Shown: positions 27,001-52,512, numbered from the stretch's first letter. The stretch: DNA of 64,000 nucleotides from Eledone cirrhosa (GCA_964016885.1 OZ024740.1:34348001-34412000), one strand, 5' to 3'. The notes: generated by a model not told the origin, from the letters alone. Translations and numbers: made by a program.

Positions 27001-29920
27001 ACCTCAAGAAACTTCATTTTTGTCAAGTGTAGCCCCCAACTCCTAGAACCTCAAGAAATTTCATTTTGTCAAGTGTAGGCCCCCCCGACTCCTAGAACCT
27101 CAAGAAACTTTATTTTTGTCAAGTGTAGCCCCCGACTCCTAGAACCTCAAGAAACTTCATTTTTGTCAAGTGTAGCCCCCCCCCCCCCCGACGCCTAGAA
27201 CCTAAATAAACTTCTTTTTTGTCAAGTGTAGCCCCCAACTCCTAGAACCTCAAGAAACTTCATTTTTGTAAAGTGTAGCCCCCCGACTCCTAGAACCTCA
27301 AGAAACTTCATTTTTGTCAAGTGTAGCCCCAGCTCCTAGAACCTCAAGAAACTTCAATTTTGTCAAGTGTAGCCCCCAGCTCCTAGAACCTCAAGAAACT
27401 TCATTTTGGTCAAGTGTAATCCCCAGCTCCTAGAACCTCAAGAAACTTCATTTTTGTGTTGTGTAGACGCCGACTCCTAGAACCTCAAGAAACTTCATTT
27501 TTGTCAAGTGTAGCCCACCTCGACTCCTAGAACCTCAAGAAACTTCATTTTTGTCAAGTGTAGCCCCCCCCCCCGACTCCTAGAACCTCAAGAAACTTCA
27601 TTTTTGCCAAGTGTTACCTCGACTCCTAGAACCTCAAGAAACTTCATTTTTGTCACGTGTAGCCCCGCGACTCCTAGAACCTCAAGAAACTTTATTTTTG
27701 CGAAGTGAAGCCCTCCGAATCCTAGAACCTCAAGAAACTTCATTTTTGCCAAGTGTAGCCCCCAACTCCTAGAACATCAAGAAACTTCATTTTTGTCAAG
27801 TGTAGCCCCCCGCCCGACTCCGAGAACCTCAAGAAACTTCATCTTTATCAAGTGTAGCTCCCAACTCCTACAACCTCAATAAACTTCATTTTTGACAAGT
27901 GTAGCCCCCCGACTCCTAGAACCTCAAGAAACTTCATTTTTGTCAAGTGTAGCCCCCCCCCGAAACCTAGAACGTCAAGAAACTTCATTTTTCTCAAGTG
28001 TAGTCCCGACTTCTAGAACCTCAAGAAACTTCATTTTTGTCAAGTGTAGCTCCCCGACTTCTAGAACCTCAAGAAACTTCATTTTTGTCAAGTGCAACCC
28101 CCAACTCCTAGAACCTCAATAAACTTCATTTTTGTCAAGTGTAGGCCCCCCCCCCCCCGCCCCCGACTCCTAGAACCTCAAGAAACTTCATTTTTGTCAA
28201 GTGTAGCCCTCCCCCAACTCCTAGAACCTCAAGAAACTTCATTTTGTCAAGTGTAGGCCCCCCCCCCCCCGCCCCCGACTCCTAGAACCTCAAGAAACTT
28301 CATTTTTGTCAAGTGTAGCCCTCCCCCAACTCCTAGAACATCAAGAAACTTCATTTTGTCAAGTGTAGGCCCCCCCCCCGCCCCCGACTCCTAGAACCTC
28401 AAGAAACTACATTTTTGTCAAGTGTAGCCCTCCCCCAACTCCTAGAACCTCAAGAAACTTCATTTTTGTCAAGTGTAGGCCCCCCCCCGCCCCCGACTCC
28501 TAGAACCTCAAGAAACTTCATTTTTGTCAAGTGTAGCCCTCCCCCAACTCCTAGAACCTCAAGAAACTTCATTTTGTCAAGTGTAGCCCCCCACCCGACT
28601 CCTAGAACCTCAAGAAACTTCATTTTGTCAAGTGTAGGCCCCCTCCCCCGACTCCTAGAACCTCAAGAAACTTCATTTTTGTCAAGTGTAGCCCCCAACT
28701 CCTAGAACCTCAAGAAATTTCATTTTGTCAAGTGTAGGCCCCCCTCCCCCGACTCCTAGAACCTCAAGAAACTTCATTTTTGTCAAGTGTAGCCCCCCCC
28801 CCCAACTCCTAGAACCTCAAGAAACTTCATTTTTGTCTAGTGTAGCCCCCCGACTCCTAGAACCTCAAGAAACTTCATTTTTGTCAAGTGTAGCCCCCCC
28901 CGACGCCTAGAACCCCAAGAAACTTCATTTTTGTCAAGTGTAGACCCCGACTTCTAGAACTGCAAGAAACTTCATTTTTGTCAAGTGCAGCCACCAACTC
29001 CTAGAACCTCAAGAAACTTCATTTTTCTCAAGTGTAGCCCCCCCTACTCCTAGAACCTCAAGAAACTTCATTTTTGTCAAGTGTAGCCCCCCCCCGACTC
29101 CTAGAACCTCAAGAAACTTCATTTTTGTCACGTGTAGACCCCCGACTCCTAGAACCTCAAGAAACTTCATTTTTGTCAAGTGTAGCCCCTAACTCCTTGA
29201 ACTTCAAGAAGCTTCATCTTTGTCAAGTGTAGCCCCCCCCGACTCCTAGAACCGCAAGAAACTTCATTTTTGTCAAGTGTAGCCCCCCCTACTCCTAGAA
29301 CCTCAAGAAACTTCATTTTTGTGAAGTGTAGCCCCCCGACTCCTAGAACCTCAAGAAACTTCATTTTTGTCAAGTATAGCCCCCCCCCGACTCCTAGAAC
29401 CTCAAGAAACTTCATTTTTGTCACGTGTAGACCCCCGACTCCTAGAACCTCAAGAAACTTCATTTTTGTCAAGTGTAGCCCCTAACTCCTTGAACTTCAA
29501 GAAGCTTCATCTTTGTCAAGTGTAGCCCCCCCCCCCGACTCCTAGAACCGCAAGAAACTTCATTTTTGTCAAGTGTACCCCCCCCCCGACTCCTACAACC
29601 TCAAAAAACTTCATTTTTGTCAAGTGTAGCCCCCGAAACCTAGAACCTCAAGAAACTTCATGTTTGTCAAGTGTAGTAGCCCCCCCCGACTTCTAGAACC
29701 TCAAGAAACTTCATTTTTGTTAAGTGTAGCCCCTCCCCCGTCTCCTAGAACCTCAAGAAACTTCATTTTTGTCAAGTGCAGCCCCTAACTCCTTGAACCT
29801 CAAGAAGCTTCATCTTTGTCAAGTGTAGCCCCCCCCCCCGACTCCTAGAACCTCAAGAAACTTGATTTTTGTTAAGTGAAGCCCCCATCTCCTAGAACGT
29901 CAAGAAACTTCATTTTTGTT
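1..29920. repeat. Tandem satellite, ~47-bp monomer TCAAGTGTAG(C)nAACTCCTAGAACCTCAAGAAACTTCATTTTTG, roughly 600 copies, with higher-order structure
   Basis: GTGTAG recurs at 101 and 148 (period 47). Monomer length varies mainly through the C-run after GTGTAG. The array runs uninterrupted from the window start to ...CATTTTTGTT at ~29920. Confidence 0.98.
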
Positions 29921-30368
29921 ATGATAATCCCACCCTAACGTTCTCTTTCAATCATCTTTGTATCTGTAGTCTATTTAATATCTTTTTTTATTTAAAATCT
30001 AGATTAATCTCTCCCAATTGAACCTCACAAACAGACATGAATAGAAAAATCAATTTTTATTTGAATCAATTCAACTTTCTATTAAATCAACTGAACTCTA
30101 ACCTGTTGAACCCTACTCCCACTCTAATCACCCCAACTACATAAACATAGACAAGAAGAAACTACCCATATATTTAATAACTCGTAAAAAATGACAATAT
30201 AATTTTTAATATAAATTAATCCATATTTGATAAGATTGACATAGCTAATCGAAGCCGGTAATATTTGATAAACTTAAATTTATTTGATGTAACAAATATA
30301 GAAATATTTGTTTTGTATTAAATAAAAAGTGATTCTTTAAACACACTTCTGTGATTTACACTTTTTTA

Positions 30369-30494
30369 CATGCATACATACATACATACATACATACATA
30401 CATACATACATACATACATACATACATACATACATACATACATACATACATAGATACATACATACATACATACATACATACTTACATGCATACA
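30369..30494 (+). repeat. (TACA)n microsatellite
   Basis: Direct reading. It is the (TGTA)n tail of the minus-strand element to its right. Confidence 0.97.
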
Positions 30495-31100
30495 TGGTGG
30501 CTGCCAACTCGTTTTCGAGTACGGCCACTACTTTATATCCATGTAGGAGAACCCCTATCGATGCGCTGAACATGTGTGACTTTTTAGTCCAGCCAGCGAC
30601 TTGAAAACTCTGGTACAAACACTACACTTGTGACAATTATTGACACATAGTGCTGGACCCATGGTACCATGTGATGACAAGTGCAGAGAGATCTCCAGAT
30701 ATAAAGCAATGCCTGTGCCGTGAAGCTTTTATAGTGAGCCAAGGCACTGCACAAAGCCAGTCCCACTCTCTTAACCAAGATGATATTTACCAAAAAGAAC
30801 AAGTCAACATCATTGGATACCATCAGGGTTGCAGGTGTTATATCAGAGTTTTCCTTCTCCTAGAATTCTGCCCTGACAAAGTCTAAGGGGTAATCTCTCC
30901 CGGTGATTTTGGATGGACATTGACTCTTAAGAGCTCCTTTGCCCTTTGACAGGTTTTGTTTTTAGTCCTGCAGGATGTCCAAAGTCACCCTCCTCACCAA
31001 GAAACCTTGATGGGGGTTGCCAGTTTAGTCGCCAACCACCCGACCATGGGACAGGTTGTACTGGGATACATGTTACCAGTAGCACCAATTGGTGACCTGA
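30495..31100 (-). mobile_element. Non-autonomous bipartite RTE-derived retroposon, family A copy 1 (5' UTR + 3' end, ~600 bp)
   Basis: Near-identical to 37031-37634 and 43218-43624. The 3' part encodes a C2H2 remnant CSVCTRVFKSLAGLKSH, like CSICRKECKSLAELKSH at the end of the RTE ORF at 40768-41175. It ends GCAGCCACCA(TGTA)n and is flanked by TACA repeats on both sides. Confidence 0.75.
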
Positions 31101-31253
31101 CATACATACATACATACATACATACAATGGCGACCGTTGTGGTCAGTGTCCGATAATGGGACGTGTGTAATTACGGCTTACATGAAGGCAACATACCATA
31201 TTATGGATAAAGTTGAGCTACATTACGCGGTAAGATTACATACAATAATTCTA

Positions 31254-31600
31254 CATAAGTGTTTGAACTGTAAGTGTGTTGTAAAACACCTATTTATATG
31301 AACGATACATACACTTATGATATATGAACGGTACATACACTTTAACATATAAATGCAAAGTTGTTATATTACATTTGTAAAGAAATATGCAAGTAACGTT
31401 TTCGATTCAGAAACAAAAACATAAGTGTTTGAACTGTGAATATGTTGTGAATATGTTGTAGAACACCTATTTATATGAATGATACATAAACTTTAAGATA
31501 TAAATACAGCGTTGTTATATTATATTACATTCATAAAGAAATATACTAAGTAACGGTTTTCTTTTTGTTTTTTTTTTGTTCTCGATTCAAATGATTCAAG
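31254..31600. repeat. Degenerate ~166-bp direct duplication
   Basis: CATAAGTGTTTGAACTGT...AACACCTATTTATATGAA starts at ~31254 and again at ~31420. Confidence 0.7.
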
Positions 31601-31771
31601 AACAACGTTTAAAACACAGTTGTAGAATGAAAAACTAACTGAAAAGAAATATTACCCAATCTGTGAATAACTTTAAATTTGATTCTGTCAGAACTTTGTC
31701 GAAACTTTTAAAGAAGATCATCGACTATTTTGAAAAATAAATCAAAATATTAGTGAATAGACGAACGCATC

Positions 31772-34700
31772 ATGGCAAAACGTACAAGTCTCCTTCGACC
31801 AAATCGCAACTACAACCGTTGTATACAGTGGAGCTACGAGCTTAACAAAGAATTATATGACGCATACAAACAATCTGAACCCCAAAAGTTCGGTTTTATG
31901 CAAAGGCTAAAACCTTTATGGAACTCCAAACACCCAGAATTAGACTTTTCTCCAAAGCATTTAAATGAACAGGCAAAACGTATCATTAGATGTAAATTGA
32001 TACATCTAACGAAATTGAGTGATACTACAAATACAGCCCTTGTAGACAACCATCCCACCTCCACTGACAGACAAAGAGAATGGCCAGCTAAATCTAACAG
32101 TGAACAGCTCACCAACAATTTTGCTGAAATCCATCCCACTTCCACTGACGAACAGCGAGAATGGTCAGCTAACTCTAGTAGTAATTGTCACCACATCAAC
32201 AACGAGGCTGAAATTCATGACTCTACTGTACAAACAGAACACCAACAACTTGTGGACACCTTACAAGTGATATGGGACGATATGTTTCAAGAGATACACA
32301 GCCTTAATGTGAGTGACAGACCATACAACACCAGAATCAGTAAAGAACCCACTAAATTGGAATTGGAAGCGGTGAACGAAATAGCTGGCAATTATCTGAA
32401 GGCTATACGATCTAAAGGTGTAGAAACGACATTTGAAACGCTTAATGTTTTGTTATATGTTTCAGCTGTCACATTGCTATCATATAACAAACATCTAAAA
32501 CCACGCAATCAAGATACAAACAAAAAGCCTGAACCAGCGTGGATACGAAATTTAAAAAGCAAAATTTTGTGCCTGAGACGAAGTATCTCACACATCGCAG
32601 TCGTTATGAAATGCAACATAGAGAGCAACTTCACACGACACCAGGAAGACCTAAAAAAAAGTTAGAGACGATTTGGAGATACAAAATTAAAAACTTTAAA
32701 CTCCAAATTACACCAGTTGAAACAACAACTCACAGCTACAACAGAAAGACTAAAATATAAGTCAACAGCACATAAACGACAAGTGCTAAATAGATTGTTT
32801 GCCAGAGATCCTAAATCAGTTTATCGCAGCTTCGGTGTCAAAATCTCAATCTCTGTAAATGACACCCCTTCAAAAGAACAGGTTGAGAGGTACTGGAGAT
32901 CTGTATGGGAAACGGATGACGGATTCAACAGACAAACTAATTGGCTAAAAGAACTGGAACATGACTACTGCCAACATGTCCAGACAAAACAATATGACAT
33001 AGATGGGTCAATACTGGAAACAGCTCTACAATGTCGAATAGGAAATCACCAGGCCCAGACCTCATTACAGGATACTGGTTGAAGAATTTCACTTTCTTTC
33101 GGCAAGATCTCATACGGCTGTTTACAGAAACCATTAAAGGCACACAAGAACTGCCCAGATGGTTAGCAACTGCCACTACTCTCCTCATTCCCCAAAATAG
33201 TCAAACCACTCTTGCTAAAAATTACCGCCCAATAGCCTGCCAAAATATCATGTATAAATTATATACTGAGTGCCTTAACCTGTTCTTACAGGATCACTGT
33301 GCTACCAACAACATAATAACACCTGAGCAAGCTGGTAGAAAGAGGGAGGTGTGGGGTTGCATAGATCACCTACTATCTAATAAAATGATTCAAGAAAAAA
33401 CAACAAAGAATCCCAGAAACATGACTGCGGTGTGGCTGGACTATCAAAAAGCATTTGATAGTGTACCTCATGGGTGGATTGTTAAGGCTTTACAGTTAGC
33501 CAAAGTCCCACAACCACTGATAGCTGCTGTTGAACGCCTGACCAAGAACTGGTACACCAATTTGATCCTTAGAGGTGAGAAGGAGCAAGTTAAGACTGAT
33601 AAGATACATTACCAGAAGGGCATCTTTCAGGGTGATAGCTTGTCAGTGCTACTCTTCGTTCTCTCACTAAATCCACTATCTTACCTATTCAGGAAACAAG
33701 GTGGACAAAGAAGTGGGTCCAGAAGTATCTCCCATCTTTTCTTTGTTGATGACCTGAAGTTGTATGGGCCAAATATCAATGACATCAAGAAACAATTGGA
33801 CCTCATTACACAATTTTCAACAGACATCAAAATGAAATTTGGTGAGTCCAAGTGTGCATATTTGGCAGTAAAACGTGGAAGAGCTGTGCCCTCCTCTAAA
33901 AATCTAGAGATGAACAGCCTGACAATACAACCTCTACTGTCAGGTGACAACTACAGATATCTTGGACAGGATGAGAATGTCAGATATGATGGACCCATAA
34001 ATAAGGAGAGAACCAGAACTGAATACCTCAGAAGAGAAAAGAAAATATGGTCATCAGAACTGTCAGCGTACAACAAATACATTGCTCACAATACTTATGC
34101 TGTGCCAATTCTAACGCCAACATTTGGCCTGCTGAACTGGTCATTGCAAGAACTAAGTGAGATGGATGTTAGAACTCTCAAACTTCTCAGTGTTACTGGG
34201 AACTTTAACATCAATAGTGATGTGGATAGGCTATAATTCTCACGCAAGGAAGGTGGCCGGGGTCTAAAATCCATATTAAAATCATGTGAGACCCGGATAG
34301 TAACACTGAAGTAACATCTTCAACAGAGGAAAAATGTAGGCAACCATCTTGGCCAGGTTTATGAGCATGAACAAAAAAAAATCATTAGAATAGCCACTGA
34401 TCTGGAGTAGAGATATGGAATAAAGCCTGATATAAATCTCTCACCCAGAGAAATCGGAAGATCCTATTCAATGTTCAAACAAGATGAAAAAAATTGATCA
34501 ATTTACAGAAAAAGTTGTGCATGGATACTTGAGACGTAAAACACAGACCATAGAGGGGATACACCACTCAAACAGCTTGGCATGGAGTTCCGACAAGTTT
34601 ATGACATCACACCTTGAGGGATATCTCTATGCAATACAGAAACAAGAACTCCCTACCAAATATCTGCTGCACAAAAGCGGAGGGCCATCAGCTGACAATA

Positions 34701-35360
34701 AATGTAGGCTATGTAAAACAAAGATCGAGGATGTAAGGCGTATTGTTGCCAGCTGCGAAAGAATGTTATCTCGCTACTACCTCCCATGAGACACGATGTG
34801 ATAGCTAGAACCATCTGGAACGCACTTCGGAAAACAAAATTAACAACAAACGAGGAAGAATATATTGAGACAGATGGCACTAAGGAATACTGGTGGAACC
34901 TGAAAATAAAAAAACTGCCACCAAATTAAAGCACAACCGGCCTGATATTGTTGTTTGGGACCACACATTGTAAACGTGTTCTGTTGTGGAGATCAGCTGC
35001 CCACTTGATGTAAACGTTGTCAGAAAAATACAGGAGAAGGAGGACATCTACGGACCATTGATGAGGAGTTTACAAATCCAGTATCCAAGATACACCTTTA
35101 GCTTCATACCCATCATTATTGGATCTACGGGTTATATATCAACCCGCTTGGACCAAAGTATAACTGAACTTGGATTTGCGGACAAAGAGCGCAGCTCACT
35201 AATTCATAGTCTACAAATGGCTGCGATAGCTGGCACCTTCAAAATTTGCAAAACATTCTTGCGATTCAAGGGATGACAATTTATTTTCTTTTACAACCTT
35301 GCCACCAGGAAGGTGGCCGGTCAAAAAAAAATATACTCGAAATTAAGAGAAAGAGATAAC
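31772..35360 (+). mobile_element. Near full-length R4/Dong-clade (RLE-type) non-LTR retrotransposon, family 1, with frameshifts and stops
   Basis: N-terminal Myb-like block WSYELNKELYDAY..LWNSKHP. RT motifs DYQKAFDSVPH, GIFQGDSLS and HLFFVDDLKLY (33031-34236). Degenerate zinc knuckle CRLC..IVASC, then RHD and the RLE motifs HNRPDIVVWD/EISCP. The 3' UTR runs directly into (CATA)n. The 5' UTR may extend back to ~31127. Confidence 0.9.
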
Positions 35361-35496
35361 ATACATACACACATACATACATACATACATACATACATAC
35401 ATACATACATACATACATACATACATACATACATACATACATACACACACACATACATACATACATACATACATACATACACACATACCTACATAC
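35361..35496 (+). repeat. (CATA)n microsatellite between two R4-like elements
   Basis: Direct reading. Confidence 0.97.
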
Positions 35497-37016
35497 TACA
35501 GGGAATACTACACCCGATTAAGAAAGATCTGGTCATCGGAACTCTCTGCGCAAAACAAAACAGTGGCTCACAATGTGTTTGCTGTGCCTGTCCTAACACC
35601 AACTTTTGGAATACTCAATTGGACGATAGACGAAATCCGAATAGTTGATGTTGGAACTCGAAAAATACTGAACAACACCGGAAACTCCCACATCAACAGT
35701 GACATAGACCGCCTTTACTTGAAACGTAAGCAGGGAGGCAGACGCCTAACATCAGTTCAAACAACATTTGAATGTCGCATCATATCTCTCCGACAACATC
35801 TACGAACCTCGAAGCGTAGGAGCCCGTTTCTCGACCAAGTCTATCTGCATGAAACAGATAAGATCATGTGAGTTGGGAAGGAACTCCTTGAGAGATATTC
35901 CCTGTGTGATAATCAAAAACTCACACCCAGGGATGTCGCTCAGCAGTATCGCAGTGAATCCATGGATGAAAAACTGCATGCCTATCAGCAAAACATCATG
36001 CACGGATATGTTTCCAGGAAGCTCCAGAGTGAGAGTAATATAGATAAGGAAAGTAGTCTATCTTGGACCAACAACCGCTATATTGGCTCCCACTTTGAAG
36101 GATACGCTTTTGCAATCCAGGAACAGGAGATTAGCACGAAATACCTGATTCACAAAAGAGATAGAGATGCAGGAAAAACACCTAGATGTGATAACAAGTG
36201 CAGACTCTGCAGAACTAACATCGAGGATATCACCCATGCCATCAGCAGCTGTCCAAAGATGTCATCGCGGTACTATCTACCTATGAGGCATGATGTAGTG
36301 GCCAACACACTGTACAATGCAGTTCGTAAAAAAGATAGCCCCGACAATAAACACATTAAAAGCTACAACAATGTGGAAGACATCCATGTACATAATATGA
36401 AAGAGTACTGGTTGAATGTTCCAGTAAAAACCCCAATAAAATGCAGGCATAACAGACCAGATATAATGATATGGGACAGGGAGAAGAAAACATGCACAGT
36501 AGTGGAAATTAGCTGCCAAGCAGATGCCAATATAGTATCAAAGATTAGTGAAAAGGAGAATATTTATGCAGAACTGATGAGAAATCTGCAGATACTCCAC
36601 CCTGATTAGACCTTCAGATTTATGGCTGTGATTATTGGGGCACTGGGATATGTTAGTAACTGCCTCAATACAAATCTTGAGAAGCTAGGCTTCACAGGAA
36701 CAGAAAGAACACAACTAGTTAGGAAATTACAAGTACAATCCGTTAATGGAACAGTAATAATATGTAAAACATTCCAAAAATTTTGCATCTAATAACTGCA
36801 TATACACATGTACAGATACAAAGCATATACACATGCACACATACAATTCAAAACATCCACATCCACACATACAATAACATCCATATCTACACATGCATAC
36901 ATACATATCTACTTAGTTGATGTTGTGTAAATTGCAATGAGAGAGTCTTGTGTCTATGTTAGAAACCGACTATCTCTCTATTGGTAAAACTTTGTGAAAT
37001 TATAAAACCAGAAGAA
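35497..37016 (+). mobile_element. 5'-truncated R4/Dong-like element, family 2
   Basis: AHNVFAVPVLTPTFG, NSDIDRLYLKRKQGGR, CRLCRTNIEDITHAISSC, RHD, HNRPDIMIWD..VEISC. Ends AAACCAGAAGAA followed by CATACA repeats. Confidence 0.88.
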
Positions 37017-37030
37017 CATACACACATACA

Positions 37031-37634
37031 TGGTGGCTGCCAACTCGTTTTCGAGTAAGGCCACTACTTTATATCCATGTAGGAGAACCCCTACCGATAC
37101 GCTGAACGAGTGTGACTTTTTAGTCCAGCCAGCGACTTGAAAACTCTGGTACAAACACTACACTTGTGACAATTACTGACACATAGTGCTGGGCCCATGG
37201 TACCATGTGATGACAAGTGCAGAGAGATCTCCAGATATAAAGCAAAGCCTGTGCCGTGAAGCTTTTATAGTGAGCAAAGGCACTGCACAAAACCAGTCCC
37301 ACTCTCTTAACCAAGATGATATTTATCAAAAAGAAGAACAAGTCAACATCATTGGATACCATCAGGGTTGCAGGTATTATATCAGAGTTTTCCTTCTCCT
37401 AGAATTCTGCCTTGACAAAGGCTAAGGGGTCATCTCTCCCGGTGATTTTGGATGGCCATTGACTCTTAAGAGCTCCTTTGCCCTTTGACAGGTTTTGTTT
37501 TTAGTCCTGCAGGATGTCCAAAGTCACCCTCCTCACCAAGAAACCTTGGTGGGGTTGCCAGTTTAGTCGCCAACGACCCGACCATGGGACAGGTTGTACT
37601 GAGATACATGTTACCAGTAGCACCAACTGGTGAC
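37031..37634 (-). mobile_element. Bipartite RTE-derived retroposon, family A copy 2
   Basis: Colinear near-identical copy of 30495-31100, with TACA repeats on both sides. Confidence 0.75.
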
Positions 37635-37679
37635 ATACATACATACATACATACATACATACATACATACATACATACA

Positions 37680-37711
<32 letters not shown>
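37635..37711 (+). repeat. (CATA)n microsatellite
   Basis: Direct reading. Confidence 0.97.
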
Positions 37712-37712
<1 letters not shown>

Positions 37713-38231
37713 GATGGCTGCAAACTCTGCTAAGAGTTTTGCATTCGCTTGTCAGATTATAGAGTTTGGTGCACCTTTAGGCTATGGCCAGCCACACGAA
37801 TCTGTAACAGATCTTGAACAAGCAATGCCTGAGCTTTGAAGGTTTTTTAAGTGGGGAAAGGCCTTCCACTCGCCCAATCCCACGCTCTGAGCATCGAAAA
37901 CACTACCCGAAAAGGAGAACTGGTCAATATCATCGGATGCTTCCGAAGCCGCAGGGTTTTGTCAGAGTTTCTCTCTCTTAAAAAGGTGTAGTGACAACAA
38001 CTAGGGACCTTTCACTCCCAGGTGAAAGAAAAATGCTATTTGGATGGCCGCTGACTCTGCTGAGTTCCTCCGCCCTTTGCCGGGTCTTGTATTTCATCCC
38101 ACAGGGTGTCCAAATATCACCCTCCTCACCAAGCAAGCTTGGTGGGGTTGCCAGTTTAGTCGCCCACGACCCGACCATGAGACAGGTTGCACTGGGTTAC
38201 ATGTTACCAGTAGCACTCGAGAGCGACCTGA
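37712..38231 (-). mobile_element. Bipartite RTE-derived retroposon, family B copy 1 (~520 bp)
   Basis: Shares its 5' ~190 nt and the GCACAGGCATTGC-type block with family A but has a different middle. Ends GCAGCCATCA + (TATG)n. Homologous to 40185-40708. Confidence 0.7.
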
Positions 38232-38310
38232 CATAGATACATACATAGATACATACATATATACATACATATATACATGCATAAATGCATACATACATAC
38301 TTATATATAT

Positions 38311-40148
38311 CGACAGTAATAACGTCATTACAGATGAACAAGCAGCTGGAAAGAAAGGTGTTTGGGTGTCCGTGCAGAACAACTAATTAACAGAATCACG
38401 ATGTCAGAGGTGCGGCAACATAGGAGGAATATGGTTACAGCCTGGCGGGACTACAGGAAAGCATTCTATTCTGTTCCCACTCTTGGATGATAGAGGCCCT
38501 CCGACTTGCTAAAGTCGCAGACACTATTATCAGAGCCATAGAGAACCTTCTTGGGCTATTATCGTAAAGTTAAAACCAGAGGAGGACCCTATTTTCACTG
38601 ATAAAATAGAATATCACAGGGGTATATTTCAAGGAGATAATCTCTGTGTGCTACTATTTATTCTGTCATTAAATCCTTTGTCCTTTCTGCTCAAGAAATG
38701 TGAAGGATACATAATTGGCTCCCAAGAGGACAGAAATACAAACCTAGCTCACAACTACTTTGTGGATGACCTGAAACTCTATGCCAAGAACATGGATGAC
38801 CTGGTTACAACATTCTCAAAGGATATAGGAATGGACTTTAGCAAGGGTAAATGTTCATATATGACCGTAAAGCGGGGAAAAACTACAAGCCAACCTAGCA
38901 ACATTTTTATCAATGATCTAACTGTTTCACCGATATCTGACGAGGAGTGCTATAGATACCTGGGGATAGATGAGAATATATCATATGATGGTATCTGTAA
39001 CAAGGAACGCGTAACCAGGGAATATTACACCCGGTTAAGAAAAATATGGTCATCTGAAATCTCTGCGCACAATAAAACAGTGGCTCACAATATGTTTGCT
39101 GTGCCTCTCTAACACCAACGTTTGGAATACTCGATTGGATGATAGACGAAATCCGAACAATTGATTTTAAAACCCGAAAAGTACTAAACAACACCGGAAA
39201 ATTCCACATCAACAGTGACATAGACCGCCTTTACTTGAAATATAAGCAGGGAGGTAAAGGCCTAACATCAGTCCAGACAGCATTTTAGTGTTACATCATA
39301 TCCTTCCGACAACATCTATGAGCCACTAAGCGTAGAAGCCTATCTATTGAGTAAGTCTGTCTACATGAGACAGGTAAGTTTATGAGCGTTGGGAAGGAAC
39401 TCCTTGAAAAATATTCCCTGCATGATAATAAAAAAATTCACACACAGGGAATACCGCAGTGAATCCATGGATGAACAACTGCATGCTTATCAGCAAAAAC
39501 TCATGCATGGATATGTTGCCAGGAGGCTCAAGTGTGAGGGCAATATAGATAAGCAAAGTAGTTTATTTTGGACCAACAACCGCTATATTGGCTCCCACTT
39601 TGAAGGACACACTTTTGCAATCCAAGAACAGGAAATCAACACAAAATACCTGATTCACAAAAGAGATAGGGATGTAGGCAAAAACACCTAGATTTGACAA
39701 CAAATGCAGACTCTGCAGAATTAACATCGAAGATGTCACTCATGTTGTAAGCAGCTGTGTCATCACGGTACTATCTACCAATAAACCCCGACAATAAACA
39801 CTAAAAGTTACAGCAATGTGTAAGGCATATACCTTCAGATTTACACGTATGATTATTGGGGCACTGGGATATGCTATTAACTGCCTCAGTACAAATCTTG
39901 ACTAGTTAGGAAATTACAAGTACAATCCATTAATGGAACTGTAAAAATTTGTAAAACATTCCAAAATTTCTGCATGTAATAACTGCAGATACAAAACATG
40001 CACATGCACAAGTATAACTCAAAACATACAGATCCACACATACAATAACATCCATACCCGCACACACATACATGCAGACATGCAAATATATTTACCTAGT
40101 GGATGTCTACTACTGGTAAAAATTTATAAAATTATGAAACCAGAAGAA
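38311..40148 (+). mobile_element. 5'-truncated, internally deleted R4/Dong-like element, family 2
   Basis: GIFQGDNL, HNYFVDDLKLY, YRYLGIDE. Colinear with 35497-37016 and has the same AAACCAGAAGAA(CATA)n 3' end. Confidence 0.88.
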
Positions 40149-40184
40149 CATACATACATATATACATATATATACATAAATACA

Positions 40185-40708
40185 TGATGGCTGCAAATTT
40201 TGGTAAGAGTATTACAATCGCTTGTCGAGTTACAGAAAATGGGGCACTTTTAGGCTACGGCCAGCCACACGAACCTGTAACATATCCCGAACAAGCAATG
40301 CCTGTGCTTTGAAGGTTTTTTAAGTGGGGAAAGGCCTTGCACTCGATCAATCCCACTCTCTGAGCATCGAAAACACTACCCGAAAAGGAGAACTGGTAAA
40401 TATCATCGGATGCTTCCGAAACCAACCACAGGTTTTTTTTCTGAGTTTTCCTCTCTTAGAAAAGTGTTGTGACACCAACTGGAGACCTTTCACTCCCAGG
40501 TGAAAAAAAATACTATATGGATGGCCGTTGGCTCTGCTGAGCTCCTCCGCCTTTTGCCTGGTCTTATATTTCATCCAGCTGGGTGTCCAAATATCACCCT
40601 CCTCACCAAGCAAGTTTGCTGGGGTTGCCGGTTTAGTCGCTGGCAACCCGACCATGAGACAGGTTGTACTGGCTTACATGTTACCGGGAGCACCCGAGAG
40701 AGACATGA
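40185..40708 (-). mobile_element. Bipartite RTE-derived retroposon, family B copy 2
   Basis: Colinear with 37712-38231. Confidence 0.7.
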
Positions 40709-40729
40709 TATAAATACATACATAAATAC

Positions 40730-41812
40730 GTGTTGCCTGCATCTCGATTTCAAGAATTGCCATTCATTTACTCATACATGGTGGCATGAATATGACTCTT
40801 TAGCTCTGCCAAAGACTTACATTCCTTTCTGCATATGCTGCAGCGATGAAGATTACTTTCACTTCGGTTCCCTGTTTTGTTTTGGTAAGCCTTCAAATGA
40901 CGTAGGAGCACACCGGCCGAGACACATTGTTTTCCACACATCCGACAGGAAGATGCTAAAGTGACCGTAATCGACAACATTTTGTACATGGCTTCTATGA
41001 TGACTTCTACAACCAGCTTTATTAAGACAAATTCAGCCACACACATTGGACACAAGTCATTTTGAACATCTAAAAATGCAGGTGAAGTGATATCGTGCAG
41101 ACTGCTACGCGGGACCATCTTTAATTGTTCATGTTCCACACGGGATTTTTCAAATTCCTGTTTTTCATTAAACAATGTTTTCCTTCAAGATGATCAATCT
41201 AAGGCAATATCTTCCCAGTTATCTTTGATTTTTTGTTTTACTTTATCAAAGCCTTTTTGATGCAGTCTTTATATCTGAGTTTTGGGTTACGCCTTGGCCG
41301 TCTGTATTTGACTAACTCCCCGTACAGAAAGTGCTTAGGAATATGATGATCTGACATTCTTACAAAATGGCCGCTCCAGTGAAATCTATATTGAATTATG
41401 AGATTCAATACTTTAAAAATGACTTTGTTCCAGCACCTCAGCATCATTCATGTGTAATTGCCAATGGATACCGAGTATTCGGCGAAGACTTTGTTGAGGA
41501 AGATGTTCCAGCTTTTTTATATTTCGCTGGTATATGACCCAAGTTTCATTCACATACAACAATAAAGACAATACACATGTTTTGTACACATTTACTTTGT
41601 ATGAACAGAAAACCCACGTCGACACAAGAGAAACCCATCTACTTTGCCAATCACTTGCTTTTTTCAGTTGCACCATGGGTGTTTGTCATGTTAACTGTGC
41701 TTCCCAAATATACAGATTTATCCACAACCTTCAGTGTTTTACTCTACAGATAAATGTGAAGTCCTTGCCCAGAGCAGGTCGATACAAAACAACTGTCTTG
41801 GTCAGACTGATT
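40730..41812 (-). mobile_element. 3' fragment of an RTE-clade LINE (decayed RT thumb plus C-terminal C2H2 zinc fingers)
   Basis: VYKTCVLSLLLYVNETW..QSLRRILGIHWQ, WSGHFVRMSDHHIPKHFLYGEL..RYKDCIK, CRMCGKQC..H and CSICRKEC..KSH. 3' end GCAGGCAACACGTATTTATGTATG. Confidence 0.85.
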
Positions 41813-41815
41813 GAT

Positions 41816-42006
41816 AGGTCGCTCTCGAGAGCTACTGGTAACATGTAACTCAATACAACATGTTACATGGTTGGGTTGTCGGCGACTAAGCTGGTAACCC
41901 TACCAAGCTTGCTTAATGAGGAGAGTGACTTTTGGACACTCAGCGAACGGGATGAAAAACAAAACCTGTCGAAGAGCGGAGGAATTCAGTAGAGTTGACC
42001 ATCCAG
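41816..42006 (+). mobile_element. Isolated RTE 5'-UTR segment (family B-like 5' end)
   Basis: AGGTCGCTCTCGAGAGCTACTGGTAACATG...GGCGACTAAGCTGG matches the reverse complement of ~38040-38231. Confidence 0.7.
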
Positions 42007-42040
42007 TAGTGTGTAGATATTTATATGTTGATATGTATGT

Positions 42041-43038
42041 TTCTCTTTTTCTTAATTTCGAGTACATTTTTGACCGGCCACCTTCCTGGTAGCAAGGTTG
42101 TAAAAGAAAAGAAATTGTCATCTCTTGAATCGCATGAATGTTTTGCAAATGTTGAAGGTACTAGCTATCGCAGCCATTTGTAGTCTATGAATTAGGGAGC
42201 TGCGTTCTTTGTCTACAAATCCAAGTTTAGTTACACTTTGGTCCAAGCGGGTTGGTATATAACCTGTAGCTCCAATAATGATGGGTATGAAGCTGAAGGT
42301 GTATCTTGGATACTGAATCATCTGCAAACTCCTCGTCAATGGTCCGTAGATGTCCTCCTTCTCTTGTATTTGTTTTTTACAACGTTTACATCAAGTTGGC
42401 AGCTGATATCTACAACAGAACACGTTTTCAATGTGTGGCCCCAAACAACAATATTAGGCCTGCTGTGCTTTAATTTGGTGGCAGTTTTTATTTTCAAGTT
42501 CCACCAGTATTCCTTAGTGCCATCTATCTCAACATATTCCTCCTCCTTTGTTTTTAAGTTTGTTTTCCTAAGTGCGTTCCAGATGGTTCTAGCTATCACA
42601 TCGTGTCTCATAGGGAGGTAGTAGCGAGACGACATTCTTTCGCAGTTGGCAACAATGTGGCTTACATCTTCGATCTTTGTTTTACATAGCCTACATTTAT
42701 TGTCAACTGATGGCCCTCCTCTTTTGTGTAGCAGATATTTGATAGGGATTTCTTGTTCCTGTATTGCATAGAGATATCCTTCAAGGTGGGATGTCAACTT
42801 GTCGGAACTCCCTGCCAGGCTTTTTGAATGATTTATCTCCTCTATGGTCGGTGTTTTTCGTCTCAGGTACCCATGCACAACTTTCTTTGTAATTTGGTTC
42901 ATTTTAAAAATCTTGTTCGAACATTGAATAGGATCTTCCAATTTCCCTGGGAGAGAGATTTATATCAGGCCTTATTCCATATCTCTCCTCCAGATTAGTG
43001 GCTATCCAAATGATATTATTTCCTTCATGTTCATAAAC
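42041..43038 (-). mobile_element. 5'-truncated R4/Dong-like element, family 1
   Basis: Reverse-complement match to ~34360-35360 (CRLCKTKIEDVSHIVANC, RHD, RPNIVVW). Bounded by TATG repeats on both sides. Confidence 0.9.
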
Positions 43039-43217
43039 ATGTATGTATGTATGTATGTATGTATGTATGTATGTATGTATGTATGTATGTATGTGTGTAT
43101 GTATGTATGTATGTATGTGTGCATGTGTGTACGCGTGTATGTGTGTACGTGTGTATGTATGTATGTATGTATGTATGTATGTATGTATGTATGTATGTAT
43201 GTATGTATGTATGTATG
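43039..43217 (+). repeat. (ATGT)n microsatellite
   Basis: Direct reading. It is the reverse complement of the TACA arrays to the left. Confidence 0.97.
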
Positions 43218-43624
43218 GATGACCCCTTAGCCTTTGTCAAGGCAGAATTCTAGGAGAAGGAAAACTCTGACATAACACCTGCAACTCTGATGGTATCCAA
43301 TGATGTTGACTTGTTCTTCTTTTTGGTAAATATCATCTTGGTTAAGAGAGTGGGACACTGCTTTGTGCAGTGCCTTTGCTCACTATAAAAGCTTCACGGC
43401 ACAGGCATTGCTTTATATCTGGAGATCTCTCTGCATTTGTCGTCACATGATTCCATGGGCCCAGCACTATGTGTCAATAATTGTCACAAGTGTAGTGTTT
43501 GTACCAGAGTTTTCAAGTCGCTGGCTGGACTAAAATGTCACTCGTTCAGCGCATCGGTAGGAGTTCTCCTACATGGATATAAAGTAGTGGCCGTACTCGA
43601 AAACGAGTTGGCAGCCACCACCAT
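43218..43624 (+). mobile_element. 5'-truncated family A RTE-derived retroposon
   Basis: Reverse complement of ~37031-37435. Ends GCAGCCACCACCA(TGTA)n. Confidence 0.75.
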
Positions 43625-43641
43625 GTATGTATGTATGTATG

Positions 43642-43972
43642 TTTTCTCTTTCTCTTAATTTCGAGTACATTTTTGATTGGCCGCCCTCCTGGTAGCAAGG
43701 TTAGTATAGTCATACTTTGGTCCAAGAGGGTTGGTATATAACTTGTAGCTCCAATAATAATGGGTATGAAGCTGAAAGTGTATCGTGGATACTGGATCTG
43801 CAAACTCCTCACCAATGGTCCGTAGATGTCCCCCTTCTGTATTTTTCTTATAACGTTGACATCAAGTAGGCAGCTGAAAGCACGTTTTCAATGTGTGGTA
43901 CCAATCAACAATATCAGGCCGGCTCTTCTTTAATTTGGTGACAGTTTTTATTTTCAGGTTCCACCAGTACTT
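43642..43972 (-). mobile_element. Short deleted 3' fragment of R4/Dong-like family 1
   Basis: RSLQIQYPRYTFSFIPIIIGAT, with a 3' UTR matching 35290-35360. Confidence 0.85.
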
Positions 43973-44049
43973 CATTGTAAAATAATCATTCCAGATATTT
44001 TAGCACCTAATTTACATAGAATTTGAAGTTGCTGAAAACCGTCAAAATA

Positions 44050-44132
44050 TTTACTTCGAATATAAGTCGACTCCATTTTACCATCGATCTTTGGGCAAAT
44101 GTTCCTCCACTTATATTCGAGTATATACGGTA
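44050..44132. mobile_element. Terminal fragment of a Tc1/mariner-superfamily (Tc2/pogo-like) MITE
   Basis: Ends CTTATATTCGAGTATATACGG-TA, a CCGTATATACTCGA-type TIR plus TA. Internal inverted pair TCGAATATAAGT (44056-44067) / ACTTATATTCGA (44109-44120). The other end was not found. Confidence 0.45.
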
Positions 44133-44979
44133 TTAGTCAGGTAACTAACCTATTTATCGGTTGGTTTAGTAACCGGATGTTTATTTAATTGTCAAAGTTC
44201 TTTCGTCACACATTCTGTGATCTTCTCAATGACCCTTTTGGTTCTCTGTGCCTCCTCTTCGTTTTGATTTTGTCCCAGTTACTCCATCTTGCTTTTCTGT
44301 GATCTAAAGCAAAGAAATTAATGCATTATAAAACTTTCAACTTCACTTAACTGAATATTATTTCCATATACTTGTTAAACAGTAATGCTTCATTTACAGA
44401 AATAAAAGCTATTTCTGTGAAAATTATGAATTGATAAACATTTAAAGAACAAACGTTATTATATAAATCAGAGGTGTGAATTGAAAGTTCAAAGACACAT
44501 TTACCGTTACAGTCCAAAATTAAGAAAGAAAGCACTTTTGTTAGTTTATATAAACTGAAATATAAATGTATACCAACAGTTACTAAAGAATACTTTACAA
44601 CCGAAATACATTAGGAGTATTTAGACAATCTTAATTTCTAAAGGTTTATATAAAATACACCCTGAGATTATTTGTAAGTTAGTAGGGCAGCATCTAATGG
44701 TTTAATTGGTATTTAGAGTAATACTTAAGGTGGAAAATTAGCAGACAGAATAACCGTCAGAATTTGGTTTGGCGTTTGAATTTAATCCTCACCGAGATCA
44801 AATTTATCTTTCATCATTCCCAGATCGACAAAATATAGTACTAGTAAAAGGGTGTGGATTGGCGGAATTATTAGAGCGTCGAACGGTATGTCTTGGGGTT
44901 GGTATTTGTTTCGGTTCTGAGCTCTTGACTGATAGACTTAATCTTTCACAGTTAAACCCCTCCATGTGGGTCTTGGATG

Positions 44980-45245
44980 TTATCATCATCATTTTATGTC
45001 CTATTTCCCCTGTTTGCAAGGGTGGGACGGGTCCTATTCAGCACAGCATCTCTCCACTTTTCACGGTCCTTCGTCATCTCCGTGAGCTTCAGCAATCTGA
45101 GGTCTGCTCTCACCACCTCCACCCATGTTTTTCGTGGTCTACCTCTACCGCGTCTTCCTTCTACTGGGATTTCTTGGCACTTCTTTACCCAGCGGTCATC
45201 CTCCATGCGCATCACATGTCCATACCAGTCTTCTCTCATGCACAC
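44980..45245 (-). mobile_element. 3' fragment of a second RTE-clade LINE
   Basis: WYGHVMRMEDDRWVKK..EGRRGRGRPRKTW..DREKWR followed by a (TGA)n tail. Confidence 0.85.
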
Positions 45246-45563
45246 CACAACTTATCCCTCTTATACTCAGTTTCTTTCTCAACTCATCTATGCTTGAATT
45301 AACCCTGTTGCAAGAAATCAGACCAAGTCTTCGGTTTGAGGGTAACTTCGTTACTCTATCAGTGACGGAGGTCCTGAGACACGATTGTCATGTGTATTGT
45401 TTCCTCCTTCCCCGACTAAACGGTAAAAAAAAGAAATGGTGGGCAAATGTTTTAGATATATATTGTTTAAATACGTCCAACAGGTTAACTGAAATGATTT
45501 TACGCAGTATATATTATTATATTCTAAATCATTATGAAAATTAAAGAAACATAATGTTTTTAG

Positions 45564-45634
45564 GTTCAAGTAAACCAGGAGAAGCAAAAGAAAATGAAAC
45601 TGCGAAGAAAGGAAAACTATCGCTCAGTCAGTTG
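45564..45634 (+). CDS. Putative short coding exon of an ABCB1/P-glycoprotein-like gene: (G)SSKPGEAKENETAKKGKLSLSQL
   Basis: TTTTAG acceptor and GTAAGT donor, 71 nt, ending in phase 0. Joins in frame to FRYST.. at 61319, giving KKGKLSLSQL-FRYS, similar to ABCB1 KKPTVSVFSM-FRYS. Confidence 0.6.
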
Positions 45635-45671
45635 GTAAGTAGTCAAAACACAATTTTTCTTGACTTTAAAC

Positions 45672-46530
45672 CAGAGGTTCTCAAACTTTTGGGGCCACCG
45701 CTCCCCTCACAGCCACGTAATACCCCCAGCCCGTCCCAACCCTATTTCCAGACGCCTACACGCAAATTGTAAATAATATATAAGTAAAATTGTTAATTTA
45801 TATATAATAAATAATGTAATATATACTATGTATAAATAAATATTATATACTTTTTATTTTACTATATTTATAATATGTACCATTTGATATTTAATATGCT
45901 ATTATATCATATGTATATCATACGATAATATTATAAATAATAAATCTGTAGTGTTCCCCAATCCACTGCCAAAAAAAGGAAACCTTTCTACATACGCAAA
46001 TATATTCTTACTCAATAAAATAGTGCACAAATTTACAACGAATATTGGAGAAGTCAATTGTATACCACTAAAACAGCCCACCCAGATAGGTTTTTGAGGA
46101 AGGGGTTCAATGAGAAAGATATGTTTGGTGAAGTGAAAGTAGCCACTCAATCTCAGGCTGAATCGTACTACGAATAAATCTGAGATCTCCACGTTCCGTA
46201 ATTCAGAGCTTGCCCTGCTGCTTTGTAAGAAGGCGAGTGACCGCACTGAATCATCTCTCAACCAAATATGGTGTTGGAAAGGCAATGAAGAACACTTTGA
46301 CTTTCTTCCAAAGCTCCGGATAGCAGTAATGGATAGCTTTTTGAAGATGAAATTCTTGATAGCACTTGCGGAATTTGGGAATGTCATTTTGAGACGTTGT
46401 CAGCTCCTCTTCTAACGCTCCACTCTCTTCTCCAACTATGTCAATGAAAGGGTTGACAATCCATTCAGGGAATCGAAGAGCAAACATATCATGAAACCGC
46501 CGCTCCATATCTTCGTGTAGTTCAGTTCAG
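45672..46530 (-). mobile_element. hAT (Buster/Charlie-like) DNA transposon 3' fragment
   Basis: TIR CAGAGGTTCTCAAAC at 45672, preceded by CTTTAAAC (nnnTAnnn-type target site). Transposase C-terminus PEWIVNPF..YPELW..IAFPTPYLVER*FSAV..RGDLR. Confidence 0.8.
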
Positions 46531-46632
46531 CTATTTTGGGTGGACAATATTGGAATTAAAAATGTTTTGGATTGCTTCAAAATGCCTGTGGACTAATTTG
46601 TAAGACATTTCAAAGTGCGTCATATATACTTC

Positions 46633-52512
<5,880 letters not shown>

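Follow-up and report, generated by a model that had tools for sequence, protein, structure and literature searches.

Two unrelated non-LTR retroelement lineages occupy a shared (TACA)n microsatellite in opposite orientations in Eledone cirrhosa

Introduction

The sharing of one insertion target by unrelated retroelements and the use of one repeat in opposite polarities each have a precedent, in separate systems. The first is provided by Keno (APE) and Utopia (RLE), whose endonucleases belong to unrelated classes and converge on one target in U2 snRNA genes (PMC4640811). Those two elements use the same site with the same 3' flank in an RNA gene, whereas the clades described here occupy the two opposite strands of a repeat, in mixed stacks. 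The second is provided by TRAS and SART, which belong to the R1 clade. In Bombyx they insert into one simple repeat, (TTAGG)n, in opposite orientations and with endonuclease-borne specificity (PMC7265360). Both are APE-type elements of one clade with a telomeric target, in contrast to the RLE-type and APE-type pair described here, which occupies a dispersed microsatellite.

Among RLE-type elements, Dong, of the R4 clade, is described as having a single ORF with a reverse transcriptase (RT) and a C-terminal restriction-like endonuclease, no N-terminal zinc finger, and a habit of inserting into microsatellites (PMC7998251). The target reported there for Dong in insects, molluscs, cnidarians and an ostracod is (TAA)n, whereas that of the R4-like families reported here is (CATA)n. 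Dong-R4 families are described as recently active in Octopus vulgaris (PMC13282606).

Among APE-type elements, RTE/BovB elements are described as having a single ORF for APE and RT, a short trinucleotide tail and target duplications that start from an A after a T (PMC13295347, PMC6007223), with T|A cleavage as the RTE signature (PMC13295347). Short derivatives made of their 5' and 3' parts, namely Bov-A, RTESINE and WALLSI3 (PMC5786205), resemble the families NA-A and NA-B below. RTE insertion is described as weakly specific or genome-wide, and one RTE is under development as a random-integration gene writer (PMC13708176); RTE-C, the family reported here, is in contrast largely confined to (TATG)n and (TA)n and carries three C-terminal C2H2 fingers. 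Where PMC6007223 and PMC4640811 list site-specific APE clades, R1 and Tx1 are the only entries. A similar described element is RTE-2_OV of Octopus vulgaris, an intact RTE that encodes a C2H2 finger and in which a microsatellite starts where the ORF ends, and for which the available text reports no target specificity (PMC9115989). RTE-2_OV is given as 1,109 aa with one finger described, as against 1,181 aa and three fingers in RTE-C; the two may nevertheless be identical. The available portions of these and further context papers (PMC8967140, PMC3124438) describe no (TATG)n-specific RTE, no (CATA)n-specific Dong and no such pairing, and Repbase or Kojima and Fujiwara 2004 may record such families.

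Results

A chain of 12 elements in one (TACA)n landing pad

The window analysed here is a stretch of 64,000 nucleotides of Eledone cirrhosa DNA (GCA_964016885.1 OZ024740.1:34348001-34412000). Comparison of the window with itself, a search for protein domains and a library of natural copies resolve positions 30496-43969 into 12 non-LTR retroelements, five R4-like (three R4-A, two R4-B) and seven RTE-type (three NA-A, two NA-B, one NA-B 5' fragment and one decayed autonomous RTE):

30367-30495, + strand: (TACA)n array, left end of the chain
30496-31099, - strand: NA-A, a 604-bp non-autonomous RTE derivative (RTE 5' region, relic C2H2 finger, RTE 3' end)
31100-31126, + strand: (TACA)n spacer
31127-35358, + strand: R4-A, full-length 4.2-kb R4/Dong-like element with RT, CCHC, RHD and PD..E motif; stops and frameshifts break the frame
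35359-35498, + strand: (TACA)n spacer
35499-37016, + strand: R4-B, 5'-truncated; second R4/Dong-like family, ~45-56% aa identity to R4-A in the main blocks
37032-37634, - strand: NA-A copy
37635-37713, + strand: (TACA)n spacer
37714-38230, - strand: NA-B, an older 517-bp non-autonomous RTE derivative
38317-40147, + strand: R4-B, older, 5'-truncated, with internal deletions, ~85% identical to a full-length copy
40187-40707, - strand: NA-B copy
40730-41800, - strand: RTE-D, autonomous RTE, decayed and truncated at the 5' end, C-terminal C2H2 fingers present (match to RTE-C at tblastn E 1.5e-32)
41816-42005, + strand: NA-B 5' fragment; the block of reversed polarity begins here
42040-43041, - strand: R4-A, 5'-truncated copy
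43042-43217, + strand: (TATG)n spacer; the paralogous site at C1 35.416 Mb carries an additional 533-bp NA-A
43218-43619, + strand: NA-A, 5'-truncated copy
43643-43969, - strand: R4-A, short, 5'-truncated, with an internal deletion

An earlier note on this DNA had described 12 insertions (five R4/Dong-like, seven RTE-type) separated mostly by TACA repeats, and our count agrees: nine of the 11 internal spacers are of TACA type, the exceptions being unique sequence at 41801-41815 and degenerate sequence at 42006-42039. Nor is the outer 5' flank at 43969 of TACA type. The note's polarity rule, by which all R4-like copies end in (CATA)n on their sense strand and all RTE-type copies that retain a 3' end finish in (TATG)n, in the left block and the inverted right block alike, also stands. 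CATA units follow the 3' end of each of the five R4 copies, and TATG units follow all six RTE-type 3' ends, the CATA run after the R4 copy at 42040 and the TATG run after the RTE copy at 40730 both being short and degenerate. Up to 41800 the R4 copies lie on the + strand and the RTE copies on the - strand, and from 41816 onward the reverse holds, so that polarity switches at about 41800-41816. The flip of the whole stack is a back-to-back junction without TACA, for which inversion or fusion of two arrays is possible.

One candidate feature was dismissed, a separate reversed RTE 3' end at 31127-31233. These 107 bases are R4-A 5' UTR, since 39 of 42 matches begin at the first base and continue into the element. 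A search of Rfam over 30300-44100 gave no gathering-level match to a ribozyme or to an RNA head of the kind that marks a SINE, and its weak matches were nearly all repeat-driven. The chain adjoins a 47-bp satellite of about 620 copies (14-29919). A GIY-YIG domain beyond it (51662-52135, - strand, E 1e-5) likely belongs to a Penelope-like element.

The element families

R4-A and R4-B are 4.2 kb and 4.1 kb at full length, and both encode an RT. A Pfam domain scan of R4-A finds RVT_1 (E 2e-24) and zf-RVT, and a natural R4-A frame (locus L135) has CCHC, RHD and PD..E motifs in one ORF with the RT. Full-length protein homologues of R4-A are ~1,150 aa long; only one homologue of the R4 protein carries a name, and it comes from Argonauta hians (66% across one third of the query). 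Absence of an N-terminal C2H2 finger sets R4/Dong apart from R2 and NeSL, and none is found in R4-A by Pfam or in five of five homologues by pattern. The R4-A N-terminus has a conserved tryptophan-spaced block, aligned over 19 sequences, for which Pfam gave no Myb/SANT match. Judged by domain order, this layout is that of the R4/Dong clade, and we call both families R4/Dong-like. A PDB search with the R4 C-terminus returned nothing meaningful, and direct comparison of R4 with RTE proteins gave no similarity outside the RT.

RTE-C was found beside NA-A copies. It is ~5.6 kb long, its top matches are 99% identical, and 16 of the 20 loci examined have frames free of stops across 1,170 codons. One such frame of 1,207 codons has an N-terminal APE (Exo_endo_phos, E 4e-11), RVT_1 (E 6e-31) and C2H2, and the protein is 1,181 aa long with three C-terminal C2H2 fingers. 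RTE-C is putatively BovB-like; its tree comprises unnamed homologues. Its 5' UTR of more than 1.5 kb and 3' UTR of ~450 bases (L326, 2942-4050; L291, 1660-2200) are rich in simple repeats, with TA and TG tracts of their own. As in the RTE clade, the encoded end consists of short units, here CAT/CAC, and the duplications (median 12.5 nt) mostly start with AT. The clade's usual broad insertion was not seen; a repeat class is present at the 5' junctions of 37 of 49 RTE-C and 85 of 99 NA-A copies, against 9% in the background.

NA-A has the bipartite layout of an RTE 5' region joined to a 3' end, with no ORF and a relic C2H2 finger, and NA-B aligns to it. Positions 574-603 of NA-A match the RTE-C 3' end at 87%, and 192-395 match the RTE-C 5' region at only ~67%, so RTE-C is not its direct parent. 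These similarities suggest that RTE-C or a close relative likely mobilises NA-A and NA-B. A reading of the three fingers as DNA readers was set aside; their helix residues are small and their linkers long, and the fingers may therefore only mark the clade. A second and abundant RTE family of the same genome, RTE-G (L171-L200; window 45122-45264), ends in a (GAT)n tail, prefers (TA)n more weakly, and offers a natural control for RTE-C. Its 5' junctions are TATG in one and TA in 12 of 38 copies. RTE-G, also found beside NA-A, was rejected as NA-A's partner, the two having no ends in common.

Junctions across the genome

We annotated 330 loci, retained those copies that were at least 85% identical and extended to the 3' end with 60 flanking bases, de-duplicated them and excluded the window and its paralogue, which left 342 copies. 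Many of these are neighbours of query matches and the set is thus biased toward chains, so exact counts over the whole 3.0-Gb genome were added. The background comprised 59,880 20-mers sampled from 60 evenly spaced 10-kb stretches (600 kb), in which CATA makes up 0.89%, TATG 0.92% and TA 5.7%.

Against these ~0.9% per strand of TACA, the 5' junctions of R4 copies are CATA in 89 of 101 (TATG 1, TA 1, unclassified 10), and the (TAA)n target of Dong sensu stricto is accordingly not the one in use; the counts are 50 of 55 for R4-A (TATG 0) and 39 of 46 for R4-B (TATG 1). RTE-C, NA-A and NA-B together give TATG in 117 of 178 (TA 27, TG 3, CATA 1, unclassified 30), made up of 27 of 49 for RTE-C (TA 9), 70 of 99 for NA-A (TA 14, CATA 1) and 20 of 30 for NA-B (TA 4). 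Boundary errors account for some of the unclassified flanks on both sides (10 of 101 and 30 of 178). When the top matches of full-length R4-A were read by eye, 30 of 30 had a 5' end that follows CATA (28 without the window and paralogue). On their sense strands, then, R4-A and R4-B have (CATA)n at both ends, and RTE-C, NA-A and NA-B have (TATG)n or (TA)n. Because the 5' junctions too lie in the repeat, tails cannot explain the pattern.

The exact counts agree. The NA-A end is followed by TATG 7,756 times, by TA 6,237 times and by CATA three times, and the R4-A end is followed by TATG once in the whole genome, out of at least 2,105 candidate ends. Since the 600-kb sample holds 887 TA runs and 75 TACA runs, NA-A prefers TATG ~15-fold per run.

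Orientation of neighbouring copies gives the same answer. Adjacent R4-RTE pairs across a microsatellite spacer point in opposite directions in 87 of 89 cases (same in two), and adjacent pairs of one clade point the same way in 101 of 104 (opposite in three). One exception to the polarity is an inverted NA-A 5' piece; the NA-A copy with such a piece at L251 (6342-6783) resembles a twin-priming product. The two central proposals of the earlier note, a TACA landing pad common to both clades and an opposite-strand rule, are thus confirmed as genome-wide and far beyond chance. Repeated re-insertion into the repeat, which it had also proposed, is borne out at 5' junctions across the genome. Another member lies on the 3' side of 42 of 143 primary matches, and for 17 of these 42 it comes from the other clade; a ten-piece chain occurs in one of the 60 unselected stretches (L251).

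Tail or target

The earlier note envisaged a self-feeding system in which RTE tails seed or extend the tetranucleotide. The encoded RTE 3' end, however, is one to three CAT/CAC units, and the class of the 3' flank follows that of the 5' flank (88, 16; 7, 17; p=2e-7; 128 of 178 copies). Of 13,996 NA-A ends counted, 6,237 run into (TA)n without TATG. The 600-kb sample contains 18 TACA arrays of at least five units, of which six touch these families and 12 do not. Re-insertion into the shared repeat stands, but a seeding role of RTE tails finds no support. Such self-feeding as exists is likely due to the splitting of arrays, duplication of the target and slippage, with either clade as the agent.

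Non-canonical exact duplications of at least 10 bases flank 26 of 153 RTE copies (two of the 26 being tandem artefacts), with a median of 12.5 nt, against a null of 10.9 and a maximum of 17 in 60 shuffles; the same test on R4 gives six of 97 against 3.95, which is not significant. Among copies whose first 10 flank bases include a variant, the variant 3' 10-mer is found again at the 5' junction of the same copy in 15 of 57 NA-A and RTE-C copies (null 3.9) and in five of 32 R4 copies (null 1.0), and no duplication was found in 10 NA-B copies of this kind. Target duplications thus occur and are seen in a minority of copies; together with the match of flank classes, they argue that the flanks are largely target-derived. 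R4 copies have 5' runs that are longer and purer than their 3' runs (median 24 vs 15 nt, n=94, p=1e-4), and RTE copies have no such difference. This asymmetry could reflect upstream recognition or the addition of repeat during insertion.

A paralogue with a filled site

Window positions 30954-47490, which span most of the chain, are duplicated at C1 35.40 Mb, about 1 Mb away, at 99% identity (91 mismatches in 16,621 bases). The earlier note had allowed that the chain might itself be a segmental duplication with shared flanks. Internally it is not, as its copies differ by 4-16% and have distinct truncation points. Within the TATG array at 43042-43217, the paralogue carries an additional 533-bp 5'-truncated NA-A in the expected polarity, together with ~56 more repeat bases. 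Insertion later than the duplication would fit these data. The window may also have lost the copy through recombination between the repeats on either side of it; the extra copy is 2.3% distant from sampled copies, which first suggested an old copy, but this argument is weakened by a longer sibling elsewhere with four mismatches in 533. The paralogue also adjoins the same 47-bp satellite, joined straight to the middle of NA-A, and window 29920-30953 is absent there.

Discussion

Opposite strands of one duplex

We propose that the chain probably arose by independent insertions of two unrelated non-LTR lineages, which use opposite strands of a single (TACA)n duplex; the likely cause is that the endonuclease of each lineage nicks only one strand of the repeat. 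As expected from target-primed reverse transcription, the R4 enzyme would nick the TATG strand, and the RTE enzyme would nick the TpA step in AYAT|AYAT. The latter motif is present on the CATA strand and in (TA)n and absent from the TATG strand, and would account for both the use of (TA)n by RTE and its polarity. It would be a sharpened form of the published RTE T|A signature, with nick positions, as read from junctions, subject to an ambiguity of 1-2 bases. If each clade has its own nicking strand, opposite polarity would follow without interaction between the clades, and no partnership is needed. With each insertion an array would become two, at times with about 10-15 bases duplicated; the halves likely regrow by slippage, and occupied arrays would thereby go on receiving copies. 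Endonuclease swaps are described as altering the specificity of TRAS and SART (PMC7265360). Two insertions at very short targets, an R4-A in the CATA-like 3' UTR of R4-B (L036) and an RTE-C that ends at most 3 bases from an R4-B 3' end (L117), suggest that only a short stretch of repeat is required on the downstream side of the nick.

Polarity could instead be set by pairing between RNA and primer, with TpA nicks on either strand and the primable strand selected by repeat that the RNA carries at its 3' end after read-through into the parent copy's flank. Such pairing is a published model for RTE tails (PMC6007223) and for SART (PMC7265360), and R4 3' flanks begin with CAT or ACAT almost always, impure sites included. 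We nevertheless regard it as unlikely, because the CAT end of RTE would pair better with the CATA polarity, yet that polarity is found three times against 7,756. Moreover, NA-A copies from TA and TATG sites do not cluster on a tree (14 changes against 13.8 when shuffled, 54 rows, the star-like tree giving low power), and three siblings with one common deletion sit in TATG (two) and TA-rich (one) sites. Still less probable is the model of the earlier note, in which (TATG)n tails of RTE create or extend the repeat that R4 then cuts. RTE tails are known as microsatellite generators (PMC2887409) and the filled paralogue has ~56 bases more TATG than the empty site, but RTE 5' flanks are TATG too, the 3' class tracks the 5' class, 6,237 NA-A ends lead into TA, and 12 of the 18 sampled arrays have no adjoining element.

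That no targeting is involved, and that segmental duplication, gene conversion or the survival of copies that happened to land in repeats made the pattern, is a reading to which we give almost no weight. The 99% paralogue of 30954-47490 speaks for it. Against it, the chain copies differ in sequence and in truncation points, the dispersed copies lie on many contigs and their outer flanks are unrelated, the pattern is already present in RTE-C copies of 99% identity, and survival would give no strand rule. Independent insertion from opposite strands thus remains the reading that we prefer, and it is best read as two independent target specificities, of which that of the RTE branch is the least expected part.

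For the R4 side, (CATA)n is a new target for the Dong group. On the RTE side, one genome holds both an intact-frame RTE with near-strict microsatellite specificity and a less specific RTE, which makes the source of APE specificity testable (endonuclease, zinc fingers or RNA end). Mixed stacks are one possible cause of local retroelement clusters in large, microsatellite-rich genomes.

Relatives in other hosts

In sequencing runs of other organisms, the 3' end of R4-A leads into the same repeat on single contigs in two of four cases (X5, X7); a third (X10) has one contig with the repeat at a 5' break, and the fourth (X8) has none among the matches listed. For RTE-C, metagenomes were scanned with 20 aligned RTE-C-like proteins, and the best 80 of 493 matches gave 66 loci. 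Three of these loci (L338, L340, L353) fall closer to the group of RTE-C. Both ends of L338 lie in (TATG)n, as does the 3' end of L340, and each of these two loci has three fingers and follows the polarity of RTE-C; L353 shows neither end of its element. Among the other 63 loci from these best 80 matches, none has three TATG units and one has four CATA units; 34 of the 63 read past the stop codon, and four of those end at most 35 bases beyond it. A FastTree tree of 79 proteins places RTE-C, L338 and L340 in one 51-row clade (support 100), of which 47 rows have at least two fingers, with RTE-C on a different sub-branch from L338 and L340; the tree is midpoint-rooted, its 48 top protein matches were chosen by similarity to RTE-C, and the informative relatives number two.

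The (TATG)n flanks and polarity of these two relatives suggest that RTE-C likely belongs to a repeat-targeting branch of RTE. A broader proposal, for which we consider the chances even, is that the three-finger RTEs are an old, cross-host, (TATG)n-specific lineage, a third target-specific APE lineage beside R1 and Tx1, and that here this RTE and an R4 branch whose target changed from TAA to CATA nick one and the same TpA step, each on the strand opposite to the other's, giving mixed stacks at thousands of loci. As a separate observation, an RTE relative with one finger from a metagenome (L378, 3970-3985) has (CATA)4 at its end, which is the reverse polarity, and unique DNA beyond it.
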